Notes under the pieces: generated by a model
What the model saw: the letters and a program-made list of their open reading frames with translations, nothing else
What the model was told of the DNA's origin: nothing
The model's database searches: none
Program-made: the position numbers and the translations under genes
Part shown: positions 5,290-46,508 of the stretch, one piece after another
Layout of the letters: each line of letters begins with the position of its first letter
How positions within the stretch are numbered: position 1 is the stretch's first letter
Origin: Candidatus Bathyarchaeota archaeon
GTDB taxonomy: Archaea; Thermoproteota; Bathyarchaeia; Bathyarchaeales; Bathycorpusculaceae
Assembly: GCA_963772455.1 (NCBI GenBank)
Contig: CAVYXJ010000021.1
Location: forward strand, 1-64,000
DNA length: 64,000 nucleotides
Direction of reading: 5' to 3'

Positions 5290-5393
5290 ATCCTATTTTT
5301 TATTGTGGCTCTCTTGGCGAAAAAAATGACATACCGCTTGGGCAGTGATTAGAACCTACTTAGTCCACATCATGTCAATTCAAAAAATTAAAA

Positions 5394-5410
5394 ACTAAAA
5401 AAAGGGAAAG
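5394..5410 (-). terminator. Oligo-T terminator after propeller gene 1
   Basis: CTTTCCCTTTTTTTAGT on minus strand; a near-identical tract follows propeller genes 2, 4 and 5. Confidence 0.6.
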
Positions 5411-5431: not shown

Positions 5432-7975
5432 TTATGCTTTCTTTCTTAACAGTAATAATGCAACTATGGCGATTGCGATGATTATTGCAATGGTTGATGC
5501 TGCAAAGTACATTTCTGTTGGTGGCAGAGTTATTTGTTCCAATGGTGCGGGTGTTGCTTTTGCTGGTTCTGCAACGAAAGCTGCTTCAGCGTGTGATGGA
5601 TAGTACGATTTAGAGCCTGTGAAGCTTGCGTAGACGTTGTATTTTCCTTCAATGTCTGGAGTCCAGTTAAAACTATAGAAGCCATCTGAACTTGTTGTTG
5701 TGGTTCCGATTTCTCTATAATTGCCATTGGCGTCAACTACGCTTATGGTTACGGGCACTCCGGTTGTGCTGGCTGGTCGTGGGAATTGTTGGTAGACATA
5801 TTTCATCCATTCACCCATGCTTTCGTCTGAGACTGCTGGGACACCGTTGGGGAATCTTGTTGTTCTTGCATATTCCTGTGTACCTGCTGCTATGTCAGTG
5901 ACTGTTCCACTGAGTACAACTTGAGAGCCTGCTGGTACGCTTATGCTTGGAGCTGTCAGTGTGGTTTCGCTTGGACCTTTACCTAAAGCGTAGATTCGGT
6001 TGTCGTATGTGTTGAAGGATAGTATCGTGCTGTCTGCAATCATTGGGTCTCCTCCCCAAACTGTGAATCGAAGTAGACCATCGACTCTGAAAATGACTTC
6101 ACCGGTTGTGGCGTTAAGGCAGACGAATGGTGCACCTCGCGGTAAGGGGCTGTTGCCTGAGTGTTCTGTGTGCCATAGGTATACTTTTCCATCAGAAATG
6201 AAACCAAATTCTATTGGCCATTTATCTCCGCCCCACATGAGTTCAGTGTATGGCTGTGTGTTGTTATAGGTCCACATTGTATCTCCTGTTTTGACATCGA
6301 TTGCTTGTAGTTGACCAGCGACTGTTCCTAAGTAGAGTATGCCATTTGCCATCATACCGTTTTCGCCTGAAGGTCCACCCATGAACCAGTCCATGTATCC
6401 TCGCGAATCAGTTGGTCCCCAGAGAAATTCACCTGTACGCATGTTGAAACCGAAGAATCCAGCTATTTCTTTTGCACGGATTGTTAACACATTGTCGTCG
6501 GGGTTTCTTGCTGTAAAGGACAAAGTTAATCCGCCGGTTGGTGGTTGCCAGGATTTATTGTATAGTACTGCTCCTCTTTGTTCTGGTTTGAGGCTTATTG
6601 CCCACATGTTAACTGCTTGGTCTGTTATCTTTCCCGTTGCGTTGATGTATCCGCCTGTGATGATGTCTTGAGGGAAGTATGCGTTGGGGGTTCCAGGTAG
6701 ACCTTTTTGTGAGAGGGTTACGTTCCAGTCATATCCCATAGAGGCGTTGAATACTATTCCTTGTGGTCTCCAGCGTTCTGAGTAGTAGTCGGCGACTGCT
6801 TGGTCTGCGGGTCTTGACATGTAGTAGTCGTGGTATGTCTTCCATGATACGGTTGTTGTGTTCCACTGAGCGACCCAGCCATTAGTTGGATCAACAAGAT
6901 ACTTTAGAATTTCACCGTTTGGACCATACACGTTACCGCTTACCGTAACGTTACCACTGCTTGCCGGTACGTTGTTTATGCTGTATTCATAGCGTCCAGT
7001 AAGTGGATCATAAGCATTCCATCTTGCTCCAACTGTCGTCCAAATGTATGCAAAGCCACCATACATGTTCATTGTTTGCCAATACATAGTTTGACCAAAT
7101 GAGACTCTTTCGTTTGCACCAAGAACTTTCTCCCAGATTATTTTGCCAGTTTTCAGATCCATTGCGACTACGGTCTGCTCAATTGTGGAGCTGTTGAAAT
7201 CAACCATTGCGTTTTGTGCAATCTGTCGGTTAAAGTAGAGTACTCCGTTGATGATTACTTGTCCCACAAATTTGCCTTCATATGCATCCCCCATTTCATA
7301 GCCGTTCGCGCCTAAGTCTCCCCCTACTACGCCACCTTCAGCGAGAGGTTGAACCCAAAGTACGTGTGGTGATTCGGGTGCGTCATTGTAAGGTGCATAT
7401 CGATTGTTGGGTGTTGTCAACCAGTTTCCGCTAATTGCGCCCCATTCTCTAAATTGTGAGTTTACAGGTCGTGTCCAGTATTCAGTTGGAAGTGGTGTGT
7501 CTGGATAGAAAGTTCGCGGTTCCTCGGTTACTACTAGGGCTAGTTTTTCGCTTTGACCTGCCAGCATTGTAGTATTTGCTGGGATGCCTGCTGCAGCATA
7601 CTTGCACTTTTGTTGTGGGAAGTTTGTTTGCAAGTAATAAGTACCAGCTACTGTTGGTGTGAATGTTGTTCCTGTTCCACCCGTTGTATCAGTAGTGAAG
7701 GTCCCAAGTGTCTGAGTCGTGCCATCGGGCTTTGTGACTGTCACTGTTATGCCTTCCCATCCAACTTGCGGCCATGCTGTCTGAGCTGAAATACCCACGT
7801 GAAGTAATGTTTCTTGCCCAACGCCTATCGGGTTAGGCATAGCTCCAATGAAGGGGTAGCTTTTCATCGTAATTTCTGCGCCTTTTGCGGTTTGAAATGC
7901 AAATAGAGGTACGGCACTAGCTATCAATAGCAATACCGTTAATGTAGCCATTATTTTCTTTCTTTCCATTTTCAT
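5432..7975 (-). CDS. Secreted, C-terminally anchored PQQ-like beta-propeller protein (paralog 1)
   Basis: Signal peptide, Ig-like N-domain, PLPTEYWTRP, repeated A.D..TG...W propeller motifs, Ig-like C-domain, TM + RKKA tail. Confidence 0.9.
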   Translation of the reverse strand: MKMERKKIMATLTVLLLIASAVPLFAFQTAKGAEITMKSYPFIGAMPNPIGVGQETLLHVGISAQTAWPQVGWEGITVTVTKPDGTTQTLGTFTTDTTGGTGTTFTPTVAGTYYLQTNFPQQKCKYAAAGIPANTTMLAGQSEKLALVVTEEPRTFYPDTPLPTEYWTRPVNSQFREWGAISGNWLTTPNNRYAPYNDAPESPHVLWVQPLAEGGVVGGDLGANGYEMGDAYEGKFVGQVIINGVLYFNRQIAQNAMVDFNSSTIEQTVVAMDLKTGKIIWEKVLGANERVSFGQTMYWQTMNMYGGFAYIWTTVGARWNAYDPLTGRYEYSINNVPASSGNVTVSGNVYGPNGEILKYLVDPTNGWVAQWNTTTVSWKTYHDYYMSRPADQAVADYYSERWRPQGIVFNASMGYDWNVTLSQKGLPGTPNAYFPQDIITGGYINATGKITDQAVNMWAISLKPEQRGAVLYNKSWQPPTGGLTLSFTARNPDDNVLTIRAKEIAGFFGFNMRTGEFLWGPTDSRGYMDWFMGGPSGENGMMANGILYLGTVAGQLQAIDVKTGDTMWTYNNTQPYTELMWGGDKWPIEFGFISDGKVYLWHTEHSGNSPLPRGAPFVCLNATTGEVIFRVDGLLRFTVWGGDPMIADSTILSFNTYDNRIYALGKGPSETTLTAPSISVPAGSQVVLSGTVTDIAAGTQEYARTTRFPNGVPAVSDESMGEWMKYVYQQFPRPASTTGVPVTISVVDANGNYREIGTTTTSSDGFYSFNWTPDIEGKYNVYASFTGSKSYYPSHAEAAFVAEPAKATPAPLEQITLPPTEMYFAASTIAIIIAIAIVALLLLRKKA

Positions 7976-8125
7976 TTTTCTTCCTTAATATTTTACGAAA
8001 TTAACGGAAAGATAATTTCGCTGGAACTCTATTCAACTATTTTTGTATTTAAAACTAATTGGAAAAAGGGAAATTACGACAAAAAATGTTCAATAAAGGT
8101 CCATTTCCCAAATAATTGGCTAAAG

Positions 8126-8226
8126 AAGGATTCACTAAGCTCTGGACCATTAGGAGAAAAAAGAAAAATCACACTACCTATTGGCTACTGTAATAAATTT
8201 TAAACAGACCCTACTCGGCCGTCCTT
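8126..8226 (-). ncRNA. Conserved structured element downstream of propeller gene 2 (copy B)
   Basis: Aligns with 45810-45914 (GAGTAGG.TCTG, ACAGTAGCCA, CCTAATG.TCCAGAGC); pairing largely retained. Confidence 0.55.
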
Positions 8227-8288
8227 CTACATTCAATTTTTTAAAGACTAAAAAAGGGGAAAAGAGAATTTTTTTTCTCTTAGTTTTT

Positions 8289-11910: not shown

Positions 11911-12084
11911 AACTTTTAAATGAAATAAGCTTGCTGAAGTTCTGGGACAGTTTTAAAGAGAGAAATTATTCAAATTCGCAATATTCTATACATTAATATT
12001 AACTTAAATCCAAAAAACTTTTTGCTGGATTAATTTAAACAAAAAAAGAAAAAAGGAAAGATTGTTTTTGGTTTGGTTTGGTGC

Positions 12085-41608: not shown

Positions 41609-41627
41609 TCTTTCCCCTTTTTTAGTC
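41609..41627 (+). terminator. Oligo-T terminator after propeller gene 4
   Basis: TCTTTCCCCTTTTTTAGTC; same tract at 45767-45785 and nearly the same at 8246-8265 (minus). Confidence 0.6.
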
Positions 41628-41987: not shown

Positions 41988-42234
41988 GTGAAGGTTAATT
42001 TGTAGAATTGACGGCCGCGAAGAGGCAAACAATCTAAAAAAATAATTTTTTGTCTTGAAAAAATTAAAGATTGCAGAGAAGAAATGGGTTGTGTGGGATT
42101 AGGTTATAATATCCTGACAAAGAAGTCACAAGGTGTATGCATTTGCTTTTTCTCTTAAATTTGGTATCAGCACTTAATCTAATCCTTATAGACTATCTTT
42201 TCACTCCTCGTTCATTGTAGGTAAAAAAAATTAG

Positions 42235-43048: not shown

Positions 43049-43107
43049 TTCGTCTTATTAGTCCATTCCCAAGAGTAAGCTGTATAAAATTTAGAGGAAA
43101 AGAAAAA

Positions 43108-45745
43108 ATGAAACTTAATACAAACAAAAAAACTATGACTTTTGTAATCACTTCCATTCTACTACTAACTATCACTGCACAGATGCTACTATTACCCCCT
43201 ACTAATGCTCATACACCTAAATGGACTATCCCATCTTTTAGCTATGTAAGCGTAGCTCCATCTCCAGTCGGTGTCGGCCAGACAGTGCAAATTTACATGT
43301 GGGTCGATACACCTCTGCCTGGCGCCGTAATAACGAATGACATTAGACGACATGGCTACACATTAACAATAACCAAACCAGACGGAAACACTGTTACCCA
43401 AAACTGGGATTTAATCGATGACACAACGGGTGTTCAATTCTTCTCGTATACTCCAGATCAAATCGGAACCTACGCAATACTGTTCAACTACACTGGTCAA
43501 ACCTATACTTGGAGCGGCGACTATCAAAATGACTGCTTTCGGACCAGCAAGTGCAACAACAACCTTAACAGTGCAACAAGATCCATTACCAATACCTATT
43601 GATACCTATCCATTGCCAACAGAGTATTGGGCACGTCCAATAGAAGGACAAAATACAGTTTGGTACACTATTGCATCGAACTGGTTAAATGCCCCTTACA
43701 TTCGTACAGGTGCAACTTCCACTGGTGGCGCAGGCTGGGGTAGATACCAACCTAACGGCATTGGACCTGAAAGCTCTCACGTCATGTGGACAAAATCAAT
43801 CCAATACGGCGGAGTTGTTGGAGGCAATAACACAGCTGTCTCAGGCGAAACCTACTACATGGGTGGCTCATACCAAGTTAGATTCAGCAACGCCATCGTT
43901 ATGCAAGGAACACTATTCTATCAAGAGCCATACGGCAACTCTGGCGGCGGAGGAGATATCGTTGCAGTCGACTTAACAACTGGACAAGAACTTTGGCGCG
44001 TAAATTCAACAAGAACAGGCACATCCATAGTTCCAACACTAGGCTACCTTTATTCCTTCGAATCAGGCAACCAACACGGAGTCTTACCAAACGGTTTACT
44101 CATTGCACCAGTCACTGTAACTGGTCAAGGAACAGTTTGGCGAACATATGACCCAAGAACAGGCGTATTGACCTCAATGAACATCACAAACGTTCCATCA
44201 GGCTCAGCAGCAGGAAACCTGTCTCCATCATCAGGATCGTCAGCTTCAATCGGTGGTCCATTAGGCGAATACCTCATCTACACATTGACTAACCTTGGAA
44301 CAACAACCAACATCAAATATTACCTATCTCAGTGGAACTCTTCTAAGGTAATCGGTAACAACTTCAGTAACGGTGTGGGAACATGGTACTCAGGAAATGC
44401 AAATGCAAGTGCAACATCGGCATACGACTGGAACGTGTCAATTCCCTCGCTTAAAGGACAATGGAGCGTCTTCAGAGATGTTTTGTATAACGATAGGTTG
44501 CTGTTGCTTCAGGGCAGCTTCGGAACAGGTCCAAGAGACAATGGTGAAGGAGTTAACGTTACTGCAATCAGCCTTAACCCAGCAACAAGAGGACAGGTAC
44601 TATGGGCCAAATACTATGCACCAGCACCCAACAACGTAACTAGAGCATTAGTAGCAGTCGATGGAATAGCTGGAACATTTGTCACTGAAGACAAAGAGAC
44701 TTTAGAAATTAATGGTTATAGCTTAGCTGACGGCAACCACTTATGGACAACCGGACCAGTTGTAACTGAATGGGATACTCTAAGAAGAGATACACTAAGT
44801 GCATACGGCAGGCTATACGCTTCGGGCTATGACGGAATACTCTATTGCTATGATGACAAAACTGGCGAATTGCTATGGACATACGGTAACGGCGGAGTAG
44901 GCAACAGCACCTATGAAGGTCTCGGAACAGCATACGGTCACATGCCAATTTTCGTTGACGTAATTGCTGACGGCAAAGTATACCTTGGAACAACAGAGCA
45001 CTCACCTAACTCACCATTCTACAAGGACGTACAATATCGCTGCGTAAACGCCACAGATGGAACAGAAATCTGGACACTGACAGGTTGGGGCACAGGCATG
45101 TACGTCGGCGCTAACGACATTGTTGCAGACGGATACTTTGTCTACCTCAACTGCTATGACATGCAAATATACTCTGTTGGCAAAGGACCAAGCCAAATGA
45201 CAGTATACAGCTCCTGACGTATCAGTTGCATTAGGTTCATCAATCTCAATCAAAGGCACTATCACAGACATTTCTGCAGGTACACAACAACAACAACAAG
45301 CTGCAAGATTCCCCAATGGAGTTGCTGCAGTCTCTGACGCAAGCCAAAAACTATGGATGGAATACGTCTACATGCAAAAGCCACGACCAACCGACGCAAC
45401 AGGTGTACCAGTTACATTAAGCGTTGTCGATGCTAACGGTAACTACAGAGAAATCGGAACAACCACAAGTGACGCAGATGGATTCTTCAGTTTGAACTGG
45501 AAACCAGACATCGAAGGACAATACACAGTCTATGCATCATTCGGCAGGCTCTGCATCATACTGGCCATCACATGCAGTCACATCTTTTGCAGTTGATCCA
45601 GCAGCATCCAACAGCAGCACCAACAGCAGCACCACCACAATCAACAGCTGACATGTACTTTGTACCAGCAATCGCAGGTTTATTCGTCTTAATCATCATA
45701 GTACTAGTCTTGCTAGTGCTCATGATGCTTAGAAAACGGGCATAA
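43108..45745 (+). CDS. PQQ-like beta-propeller surface protein (paralog 5), split by about 4 insertions
   Basis: ORFs 43108-43602, 43418-45217 and 45357-45596 plus tail ..STADMYFVPAIAGLFVLIIIVLVLLVLMMLRKRA*; shifts near 43535, 45207, 45545 and 45607. Confidence 0.88.
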
Positions 45746-45809
45746 ACATACAAACAAACACAACTATCTTTCCCCTTTTTTAGTCTTTAAAAATGAATTG
45801 AGAAAAAAT

Positions 45810-45914
45810 GGGGCTGAGTAGGCTCTGATTAAAGTTTACGACAGTAGCCATAGTGTCGTTGAGCGTTTGCATTCGCTCCTTTCCCTAATGATCCAGAGCC
45901 TCAGCAAACCCTTT
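45810..45914 (+). ncRNA. Conserved multi-stem structured element downstream of propeller gene 5 (copy A)
   Basis: GCTGAG/CTCAGC, GGCTCTG/CAGAGCC and ATTA/TAAT closing two hairpins ACGACA/TGTCGT and GAGCG/CGCTC. Confidence 0.6.
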
Positions 45915-46035
45915 CAATTCAGAAAACCCTAAACTACAATCAAAAAAAGAAACAAATCTTTTATTCTTGGAATGTTTGTCCAAGAATCTATTTATTCTAA
46001 ATTTTTCCTAATATGCAGATATAACGGGAGTTTCA

Positions 46036-46370
46036 ATGGAAGACAGAGTATGTACACGTTGCCGATACCAAAGATGTAGAGGCAGGCAAAATGAAAAAGG
46101 TCACCTTAGAAGACAAAGCAAGTCCTAATTGTCAACTTTGAGGGGACATATTATGCTGTTGACAGTTATTGTACTCATTATGGCGGCGACCTTTCAGAAG
46201 GCAATTTAGAAGGCAAAATTATCACTTGTCCAGTTCATAAAGCAAGATTTGACATCACAACTGGAAAAGTAGTTTCACCCCCTACTGAAGCACTCGATCG
46301 CCCAGATATAGAAAACCTGCAAACATTCACCTTGAAAATTTTAAACCAAGAAATTCTAATTAAAAAATGA
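46036..46370 (+). CDS. Rieske [2Fe-2S] ferredoxin, missed by ORF track because of 2 insertions
   Basis: TEYVHVADTKDVEAGKMKKV.. / ..YYAVDSYCTHYGGDLSEG..ITCPVHKARFDITTG..IKK*. Confidence 0.85.
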
Positions 46371-46508
46371 ATTGTTTTCTTGATTCCTGTAAAAAGTAGA
46401 TAGGAAAAAAGATTTGGTAAAAGTCTTGTGAATAACTATTTAATTTTGAAAGAAAAGAATACGGTCGTAACAACAAATGTTTTAAGTTACAAATCATAGA
46501 AGTAATGT

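Follow-up and report, generated by a model that had tools for sequence, protein, structure and literature searches.

The locus behind propeller 5

The window analyzed here comprises the first 64,000 nucleotides (nt) of contig CAVYXJ010000021.1 of a Candidatus Bathyarchaeota archaeon (GenBank assembly GCA_963772455.1). Among its genes are members of a family of surface proteins, denoted propellers 1 to 5, that combine PQQ-type beta-propeller and immunoglobulin-like domains with a signal peptide and a C-terminal membrane helix followed by a basic tail. Behind propeller 5, on the gene-sense strand, lies an element at 45810-45914 that is the subject of this work. The original prediction, which was made from the sequence of the window alone, described it as a repeated, structured non-coding element, either an unannotated small RNA (sRNA), a 3' regulatory or processing element, or a recombination-associated repeat. 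We find that the first two designations are right in kind, the element being a conserved, structured, and covarying unit on the gene-sense strand, and that the last one finds no support. Two features had been missed altogether, namely, that the outer stem forms a motif of the bulge-helix-bulge (BHB) type and that the interior is antisense to the translation starts of the same surface-protein family.

The multi-stem fold of about 100 nt is real: the segment 45800-45925(+) folds at -38.5 kcal/mol (RNAfold; z = -3.4), with 1 of 200 shuffles equally stable, and both of the inner hairpins that had been proposed, ACGAC..GTCGT and GAGCG/CGCTC, form. The placement behind the T-tract of propeller 5 also holds, with a measured gap of 28 nt between the T-run (45776-45781) and the element start at 45810 rather than the estimated 25 nt or so. 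The outer helices had been given as GCTGAG/CTCAGC and GGCTCTG/CAGAGCC; the stem exists, but not in this register, in which one C is common to both helices.

A bulge-helix-bulge motif in the outer stem

In the register found here, the stem runs GGG, GCTG, bulge AGT, and AGGCTCTG on the 5' side, opposite CAGAGCCT, CAGC, bulge AAA, and CCC on the 3' side; this is a canonical BHB motif, which the splicing endonuclease of archaea takes as its substrate. Conservation was assessed on 63 sampled copies, 37 from the genus of the window and 26 from a second genus. Both 3-nt bulges, on opposite strands, are present in every aligned copy (37/37 and 26/26), and the central helix H keeps all four of its pairs in 34 of the 37 and in all 26. 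The strict hBHBh' motif, with a 4-bp H, two 3-nt bulges, and helices h and h' of 2 bp or more each, is found in 31/37 and 21/26 copies, that is, in 52 of the 63, and those that fail it have mostly lost one or two pairs of h or H. Compensatory changes occur at two of the four H pairs within the genus of the window. Across the BHB stems, 95.3% and 95.8% of the cells are paired in the two sets, compared with 18-54% in slid-partner controls, and in each set seven pairs have changed on both sides (at position 12:105, for example, the pair is mostly A-U, G-C in two copies, and G-U in one). The observed pairing and covariation were matched by none of 500 shuffles for nine of the ten measures (five per set) and by 2 of 500 for the remaining one, although the sampled copies are related, so that these controls overstate independence.

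The sequences that surround the motif are part of the same structure. The 24-nt flanks pair in a cognate-specific manner, with duplex energies of -9.17 against -7.41 for non-cognate partners in the first set (n=37) and -14.28 against -11.07 in the second (n=26), and none of 2000 permutations was as good in either genus. Because the flanks differ among copies and yet pair best with their own partners, the motif sits inside a long helix similar to a processing stem, and the transcript must span both flanks.

As an internal standard, we used this genome's tRNA-Ser(GGA), whose 21-nt intron at 37/38 is cut after the second bulge base. Read in the gene-sense direction, and only then, the element stem has its bulge 3' of the central helix on both sides, as in this intron; the reverse strand would put the bulges on the wrong side of H, so that the BHB motif itself fixes the strand of the element. 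The genome encodes two EndA proteins (PF01974, 99.6 and 76.5 bits) and one RtcB (PF01139, 596 bits). The presence of two separate EndA genes agrees with a splicing endonuclease of the two-subunit type, an enzyme reported to tolerate relaxed BHB motifs. Together with RtcB and the tRNAs that contain introns, these genes identify the organism as an archaeon.

The element matched no family of Rfam 15: the segment 45700-46050 gave no covariance-model match at E<=10, and seven other element loci produced only a 26-bit chance match to a plant miRNA model with a gathering score of 100. ARAGORN calls no tRNA at the element site. The alignment of the 37 copies, inspected by eye for consensus motifs, contains no conserved boxes of C/D (RUGAUGA, CUGA) or H/ACA guide RNAs and no conserved K-turn or hammerhead core. 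Small open reading frames (ORFs) starting from an ATG just upstream of some copies were likewise discarded, given that frame and length vary among copies and the ATG is not conserved.

Two tRNA genes elsewhere in this genome bear mention in connection with introns. The tRNA-Trp at C13:108169-108308 has a 63-nt intron holding a GAUGACGA..CUGG stretch that recalls the C/D-box guide RNA found in tRNA-Trp introns of other archaea, and ARAGORN calls a tRNA-Val with a 1036-nt intron at C20:74114-75244(-), which may be a long intron or a false call.

The predicted circular junction in contigs of relatives

Cutting after the second base of each bulge would release an 89-nt RNA, 45819-45907, and its closure would join ...CAGCAA to TAGGCTC.... 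A 25-nt pattern spanning this junction had no match in public metagenome contigs. The 19-nt pattern GAGCCTCAGCAAWAGGCTC, which is valid for both genera, matched 18 metagenome contigs, of which 15 are unrelated chance matches and only three hold the element (L102, L111, and L112; records Ga0265604_100698, Ga0257136_1003727, and Ga0257144_1002231). All three have the same arrangement: a surface-protein gene ends in its stop codon, a hairpin with the T-tract comes next, and GGGGCTG-AGT (or AAA)-AGGCTC leads into the interior; GAGCCT-CAGC-AA is then joined directly to T (or A)-AGGCTC, behind which the interior occurs a second time. The repeat period is 105-106 nt, each contig stops in the second round, and the lengths of 2955-3240 nt correspond to about one gene plus the element. 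In two of the three, the 5' bulge is AGT, and with this bulge, a junction reading AA|T necessarily places both cuts after the second bulge base.

We read the three contigs as apparent assemblies that run from a linear precursor into abundant circular RNA; a tandem duplication in DNA would have to have arisen with exactly these borders in three diverged lineages, which is unlikely. The same 19-nt pattern, searched against a species-genome collection that we assumed to include the element-bearing genomes of the surveys described below, gave nine matches, all in bacterial records and none with the element, and the DNA of the present genome contains no circular junction, spliced-exon, or permuted form.

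The interior is antisense to the translation starts of the family

The reverse complement of the interior reads TTAGGAGAAAAG..ATGCAAA..CTATGGCTACTGT and resembles a real family gene start such as ..attggagaaaaagaaaaaATGCAAATAAAAAATAAAACTATGGCTATTGTA.. at C9:194444, which encodes MQIKNKTMAIVI. Three loop blocks, taken from the element only and arranged in the order of the target with loose spacing, matched the genome at 13 sites with at most two mismatches: three are elements, nine lie at the starts of eight surface-protein genes, and one is elsewhere. Controls gave 0-5 matches with letter-shuffled blocks (20 trials), one with reversed blocks, six with the order swapped, and four with reverse-complemented blocks. 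Exact complementary runs of at least 10 nt occur in 26 of the 112 pairs of element and family start, compared with 9 of 1008 internal windows and none of 112 on the wrong strand.

The second genus presents the same picture with different sequences. In its genome G076, complementarity of at least 10 nt is found in 79/121 pairs versus 5/1089 internal windows, at -10..+10 and +28..+45 relative to the ATG, and one element matches the start of another gene exactly over 19 of 19 positions. Here the blocks track the sequences of this genus itself, that is, its Shine-Dalgarno (SD) region GAAGGTGA, start ATGAAAAAA, and codons GCTACTATCACTTTGGTT. Duplexes formed within a genus are stronger than those formed across genera (-31.1 vs -23.0 and -23.4 vs -18.6), and by eye, the same antisense design is seen in three further genera (g30, g33, and g34). 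Judging from these comparisons, the putative regulator and its targets seem to change together across lineages, with complementarity to the SD and start regions that exceeds chance.

The disposition of the antisense blocks is consistent with exposure for pairing. The block opposite the start codon resides in the loop of hairpin 2, with the motif present in 35/37 copies and a mean unpaired probability of 0.80; part of the codon block is in the loop of hairpin 1; and the stems vary among copies. Among good targets, the element of the window fits its own gene worst, at -23.5 kcal/mol, compared with -39.5 kcal/mol for C9:194444 and -31 to -39.5 for the others.

The original prediction had allowed that the segment could be the decayed end of a protein-coding gene on the opposite strand. 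Taken literally, this description applies to the interior, which mirrors the 5' ends of family genes; decay is another matter, given that the arms, the covariation of the flanks, the pattern of conservation in loops and stems, and the spread over at least five genera all point to a maintained antisense module rather than a decaying fragment.

Copies, relics, and taxonomic spread

Seven good copies were detected in the 2.45-Mb genome with blastn and motif scans (C21:45809, C9:6201, C9:51814, C10:268603, C10:72408, C12:206139, and C19:16829). Other traces of the element in the window are listed in Table 1 together with the parts of the element and its candidate targets. The homolog announced behind propeller 2, on the minus strand, is real and shows the C-G to T-G and G-C to T-A changes in its first hairpin, but its fold is not intact: one of the four central-helix pairs is left and hairpin 2 is gone. 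Partial copies had been expected behind propellers 1 and 3 and are present there, and propellers 2 and 5 are distant paralogues, as had been assumed, with 28% identity.

Table 1. Coordinates of the element, its parts, related copies, candidate target regions, and processing genes (positions in the window unless a contig is named)
Feature	Position	Strand	Basis or remark
Stop codon TAA of propeller 5	45743..45745	+	C-terminus is a transmembrane helix, then LRKRA
Conserved pyrimidine/T-tract motif TTTCCCCTTTTTTAGT	45769..45784	+	27 genome sites at <=2 mismatches
TTTCCCCTTTTTTAGT, sites in the window	45769-45784, 41611-41626, 8247-8262(-), 5394-5409(-)		also on other contigs
Outer flank helix, 5' strand TGAATTGA	45794..45801	+	partner 45914-45921; minimum free energy fold of 45745-45965
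Helix h, 5' strand GGG	45810..45812	+	partner 45909-45911
Central 4-bp helix H, 5' strand GCTG	45813..45816	+	partner CAGC 45902-45905
5' three-nt bulge AGT	45817..45819	+	predicted cut 45818|45819; modeled on the tRNA-Ser(GGA) intron; junction AA|T in contigs L111, L112
Predicted excised RNA, 89 nt, putatively circularized by RtcB	45819..45907	+	BHB cut positions, junction contigs
Helix h', 5' strand AGGCTCTG	45820..45827	+	partner 45894-45901; 98.8% of cells paired, 37 copies
Hairpin 1, ACGAC..GTCGT stem, loop AGTAGCCATAG at 45843-45853	45838..45859	+	loop antisense to codons about 8-11 (..CT ATG GCT ACT..) of family genes
Hairpin 2, GAGCG-TTTGCATT-CGCTC, loop TTTGCATT at 45866-45873	45861..45878	+	loop antisense to start region AATGCAAA
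Pyrimidine tract CTTTCCCTAA (consensus TTTTCTCCTAA)	45879..45888	+	antisense to family Shine-Dalgarno region TTAGGAGAAAA
Helix h', 3' strand CAGAGCCT	45894..45901	+	pairs with AGGCTCTG
Central helix H, 3' strand CAGC	45902..45905	+	pairs with GCTG
3' three-nt bulge AAA	45906..45908	+	predicted cut 45907|45908
Helix h, 3' strand CCC (45909-45911), two unpaired bases, outer flank helix, 3' strand TCAATTCA (45914-45921)	45909..45921	+	fold, flank pairing
Translation start region of propeller 1, ATG 7975	7916..8010	-	20/22 letters of the three-part target pattern
Translation start region of propeller 5, ATG 43108	43073..43167	+	weaker fit to own element than several paralogues elsewhere
Second copy, decayed, behind propeller 2	8126..8223	-	blastn E 1.5e-15; model score 76.6 bits
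Relic of 5' part behind propeller 1	about 5335..5368	-	partial copy
Relic behind propeller 3, 3' arm recognizable	11926..12029	-	model E 0.64
Relic about 500 nt behind propeller 4	42093..42186	+	model E 0.33; arms altered, no BHB
EndA-family genes, frames of 189 and 192 aa	C11:142406-142648 and C11:105017-105271	- and +	PF01974

A covariance model built from an eight-copy alignment yielded 423 matches in 54 of the 101 genomes of the order of the window, a pattern far beyond chance. The matches are found in 49/60 other genomes of the same genus, in 4/4 genomes of a genus in another family, and in 0/36 of the others, with up to 27 in a single genome; tandem doublets occur. In an even draw of the class, the element is present in 11/151 genomes, which represent four genera of the family of the window and one genus of a second family. 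The only match outside these two families, L098 (G217:C523:1-1405), is marginal. Its contig measures 1.4 kb, in a genome of 550 contigs, and may be mis-binned, given that the sequence is of the second-genus type. The surface-protein gene family itself is present in 70/71 genomes of the genus, and G053, the sole complete genome from which the family is missing, has no element either, which is too little for a conclusion on a phyletic link between the two.

Genomic context and transcription

The copies are concentrated in one place. In 34/37 and 22/26 of the copies (56/63 altogether, by the strict pattern), the element lies within 130 nt of the end of a family gene or its T-tract. Five copies stand alone (L046, L053, L054, L071, and L076), and two more are the second member of a tandem. 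Copies with a TATA box and no family gene upstream occur in several species. Three loci of genus g30 (L093-L095), one from each of three species, are preceded by a common sequence in which a TTTAAAAA box stands about 50 nt ahead of the BHB, and from this arrangement, the stand-alone unit looks like a dedicated small-RNA gene. That some units come with their own promoter argues for action in trans.

For the copies behind family genes, the T-tract is part of the setting. About 15 family genes carry the near-invariant motif TTTCCCCTTTTTTAGT at a distance of 20-35 nt past their stop codons, irrespective of the presence of the element, and about 15 of its 27 genomic sites, judged from the site listing, are directly behind family gene ends; in the second genus, the T-run is in the loop of a CTCCC/GGGAG hairpin. 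The tract at 45769-45784 is probably a leaky first terminator and is also able to pair with the purine tract that precedes the element.

Several further observations concern the host genes. The propeller 5 gene (43108-45745, +) is split into ORFs 43108-43602 and 43418-45217 and a last piece that extends to 45745. Metatranscriptome contigs of relatives omit one base at 45205/45206, just before the end of the second ORF, which points to a one-base insertion in this assembly, due either to pseudogenization or to an assembly error. At C23:18567(-) and C12:181170(-), two near-identical 3' ends of a propeller-5-like gene, with one-base differences in the codons of the membrane helix, lack the element; compared with 45769-45921, the element and its 5' flank are absent and the 3' flank TTCAATTC is kept. 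Given that the difference between C23:18567 and C21:45769 is larger than the intron, it is not a precise intron loss. At L127 (G198:C38:76700-88200), three family genes are arranged in tandem, two of them full-length and each of these followed by an element; around the ATG, the full-length genes hardly differ from each other for about 110 nt of their 5' regions, which suggests either gene conversion or constraint on the start region.

A model of the element and its alternatives

The reading that we consider best supported, with a probability of roughly 0.55, is that the element is a circular antisense RNA that is excised via its BHB motif, mostly from the 3' tails of surface-protein genes, and acts on the translation starts of the family. 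The components of this reading differ in standing: excision of the element is well supported, its release as a small circular RNA is probable, and regulation of translation is what we infer from the complementarity. Under this model, transcripts in the gene-sense direction would mostly extend past the T-tract and into the 3' tails of surface-protein genes, with a promoter of the element itself taking this role in some lineages. The flanks, for which covariation is demonstrated, would pair into the long helix that presents the BHB; EndA would cut at 45818|45819 and 45907|45908, and RtcB would close the 89-nt product into a circle. The circle would expose the anti-SD, anti-AUG, and anti-codon blocks in loops and single strands, complementary, in order, to the SD region, the AUG region, and codons about 8-12, and would pair in trans with the start regions of family mRNAs and lower their translation, resulting in feedback within the family or cross-talk between paralogues. 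We favor action in trans because stand-alone copies with TATA boxes exist and because the element of the window fits the paralogues better than its own gene. In an extension of this scenario, a nuclease-resistant circle released from the tail of each transcribed gene would block the ribosome-binding sites of the paralogues more effectively than its own, creating a mutually exclusive, RNA-based surface-variation switch in archaea, driven by the machinery of tRNA splicing, in which a single gene dominates at a time; we regard this extension as rather improbable.

A number of observations weigh against the model of a circular antisense RNA. The preference for family starts is modest in this genome, where family starts differ from 300 control starts by -23.4 vs -20.5 (p = 0.012) and 43/300 control starts reach the duplex energy of the median family start; nor does the family stand out when single segments of the interiors are searched in the genome by BLAST, with one family start among the 45 best of 90 matches. 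The three junction contigs come from relatives in the second genus, not from the genus of the window, and may stem from either RNA or DNA libraries. The six-T run between the stop codon and the element may halt most transcription, and the available expression data do not help: none of the runs contained more than 9% of the sampled words, and in four metatranscriptome runs (at least 85% identity), contigs of relatives cover 44900-45766 only, with none over 45767-46400, and are thus uninformative on the element. The sequence of the arms is conserved far beyond what recognition by EndA requires, which the model leaves without an explanation. The T-G pairs that the original prediction took to favor the gene-sense strand do so weakly, with 17 G-U versus 11 A-C cells in one set and 14 versus 7 in the other, the strand being set by the topology of the BHB instead. 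Finally, 11/60 genomes of the same genus have no match to the element, and 10 of these 11 carry the gene family; 9 of the 11 are assemblies of at least 110 contigs.

The alternative that stays closest to this model is an intron in the 3' untranslated region (UTR) that acts in cis, with the antisense blocks pairing with the start of the same mRNA and silencing or stabilizing it, splicing by EndA serving as the switch, and the circle being a by-product. The location of 34/37 and 22/26 copies in the tails of family genes fits such an arrangement, as do the target blocks that the start of each gene itself carries and the purine tract just upstream of the element, which can pair with the internal pyrimidine tract and thus create alternative folds. 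Nevertheless, we consider this explanation unlikely: the stand-alone copies with TATA boxes (L046, L053, L054, L071, L076, and the g30 loci) have no family gene upstream, the window element pairs less well with its own gene than with any other good target, and the start region, which is transcribed about 2.6 kb ahead of the tail, would by then be loaded with ribosomes. Another possibility is a selfish, BHB-intron-like repeat of no benefit to the host, comparable to the transposed tRNA introns of Thermoproteales or to a miniature inverted-repeat transposable element (MITE), in which the likeness to gene starts would be a trace of origin. The element is indeed multicopy, with decayed copies, relics, tandem doublets, and a patchy taxonomic range, and it is present or absent between close paralogues (C21:45769 with the element; C23:18567 and C12:181170 without it). 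This scenario appears doubtful all the same, considering that the genomic context is nearly fixed rather than scattered; that there are no direct target-site duplications, the flanks being complementary and covarying instead; that the difference between the paralogues takes the 5' flank along and so does not correspond to a precise intron-sized unit; and that the antisense blocks are in loops while the stems vary. Moreover, the interior tracks the SD, start, and codons of each genus, which calls for continuing selection or repeated re-copying.

Two explanations that dispense with excision fare far worse. The element could be a feature of the DNA, either an inverted and decayed 5' end that rearrangement of a family gene left behind or an inverted repeat that serves to flip or exchange surface-protein genes; in the reverse complement, the interior does read as an SD, an ATG, and the first codons, with 45872(-) giving MQTLNDTMATVV compared with MQIKNKTMAIVI at the real gene, and the family is large and variable, with at least 15 matches in this genome. 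What makes this origin very improbable is that the arms and flanks are not derived from a gene and covary as RNA helices, that stems replace the region of the n-part of the signal peptide and the reverse frames carry stops, and that the identical stretches, at 7-22 nt, are short for homologous recombination; no inversion joints were seen, though the RNA contigs used did not cover the element. We give hardly any credence to the view that the element is an ordinary 3' stem-loop, not excised, with a role in protecting the end of the mRNA or in aiding termination. Its stable fold and its location behind a stop codon and a T-tract would be in keeping with this role, and a run of at least four T begins within 8 nt of 3/7 copies in this genome (16-61 nt downstream in the other four). 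A plain stem-loop, however, has no need for two 3-nt bulges exactly 4 bp apart, retained in 52/63 copies, and leaves both the circular junction contigs and the start-complementary loops unaccounted for.

Relation to known systems

Parts of the proposed mechanism have counterparts elsewhere. The C/D box sRNA in the archaeal tRNA-Trp intron is a functional RNA that originates from a BHB intron, and in this system, as proposed here, it is the excised intron and not the exons that yields a stable, useful, and circular product. CpxQ is a bacterial sRNA derived from a 3' UTR; in such sRNAs, the origin from an mRNA 3' end links the output of the regulator to the expression of the parent gene, as it would for the present element. 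Thermoproteales carry families of transposed tRNA introns, which share with MITEs and repetitive extragenic palindromic (REP) sequences, and with our element, the character of a short multicopy repeat with inverted termini and some decayed copies. The element differs from these repeats in its fixed context, covarying flanks, lack of target-site duplications, and an interior that tracks a host gene family; a mobile repeat of the MITE/REP type is disfavored by the flanks, which are complementary, not direct repeats, and by the position of 56/63 copies behind one kind of gene end.

The structural likeness to archaeal BHB introns and rRNA processing stems is close, with the same succession of helix, 3-nt bulge, 4-bp helix, 3-nt bulge, and helix, and with the topology and cuts of tRNA-Ser; in rRNA operons, too, a long helix of the flanks presents the BHB. 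Circular products have been described for archaeal rRNA and tRNA introns (PMC7714728; PMC12918454). Unlike these, the present element is outside tRNA and rRNA, dispersed in many copies behind protein genes or alone, and the excised part is the conserved and apparently functional one. BHB substrates outside tRNA and rRNA that have been described include the cbf5 mRNA intron of Crenarchaeota, a 46-nt intron in the 5' UTR of HVO_1309 in Haloferax, and a 16S-like precursor (PMC7714728; PMC2738675). The HVO_1309 intron is similar to our element in being an EndA substrate in an untranslated region of an mRNA that is detected as a circular RNA (PMC7714728). Both it and cbf5 are single loci, and the piece that is excised is not known to have a function, whereas the element comes in hundreds of copies in 3' tails and has an antisense interior.

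In animals, the tRNA intronic circular RNAs known as tricRNAs are described as stable, useful products of excision (PMC4536317). Compared with both, the element has no C/D or H/ACA boxes (by eye), and its host is an mRNA tail or a dedicated unit rather than a tRNA. With sRNA162 of Methanosarcina, described as a trans-acting antisense sRNA that masks a ribosome-binding site, the element shares the complementarity to the SD and start (PMC3510493). The differences from sRNA162 and CpxQ lie in the proposed release as a circle by the tRNA-splicing machinery, not by cleavage of the RNase E type or termination, and in the targets, which would be the paralogues of the parent gene. In the main text of a study of circular rRNAs in uncultivated archaea including Bathyarchaeia, the terms sRNA, antisense, and UTR do not occur (PMC12918454). 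In the literature outside subscription journals, we found no BHB-bounded repeat behind surface-protein genes, no BHB-derived antisense circle, and no regulatory circular RNA originating from a BHB. The processing route and the antisense principle are already known, and what would be new is the way in which the two are combined, the arrangement in many copies in the tails of the family that is targeted, and the circularity of the RNA.

Implications

Apart from tRNA and rRNA, only a handful of single loci are known to serve the archaeal splicing endonuclease as substrates. The element family described here comprises hundreds of copies in an uncultured lineage of soil and sediment archaea, in at least five of its genera, and its BHB motif would release what appears to be a tailor-made antisense RNA directed at the starts of a large surface-protein family. 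The prediction is a sharp one, consisting of a junction of known sequence and two cut sites. If the proposed mechanism is true, it would give the tRNA-splicing machinery a new job and add a circular-RNA regulator to the repertoire of archaea, and it would also provide a handle on the control of the most variable surface genes of these organisms.

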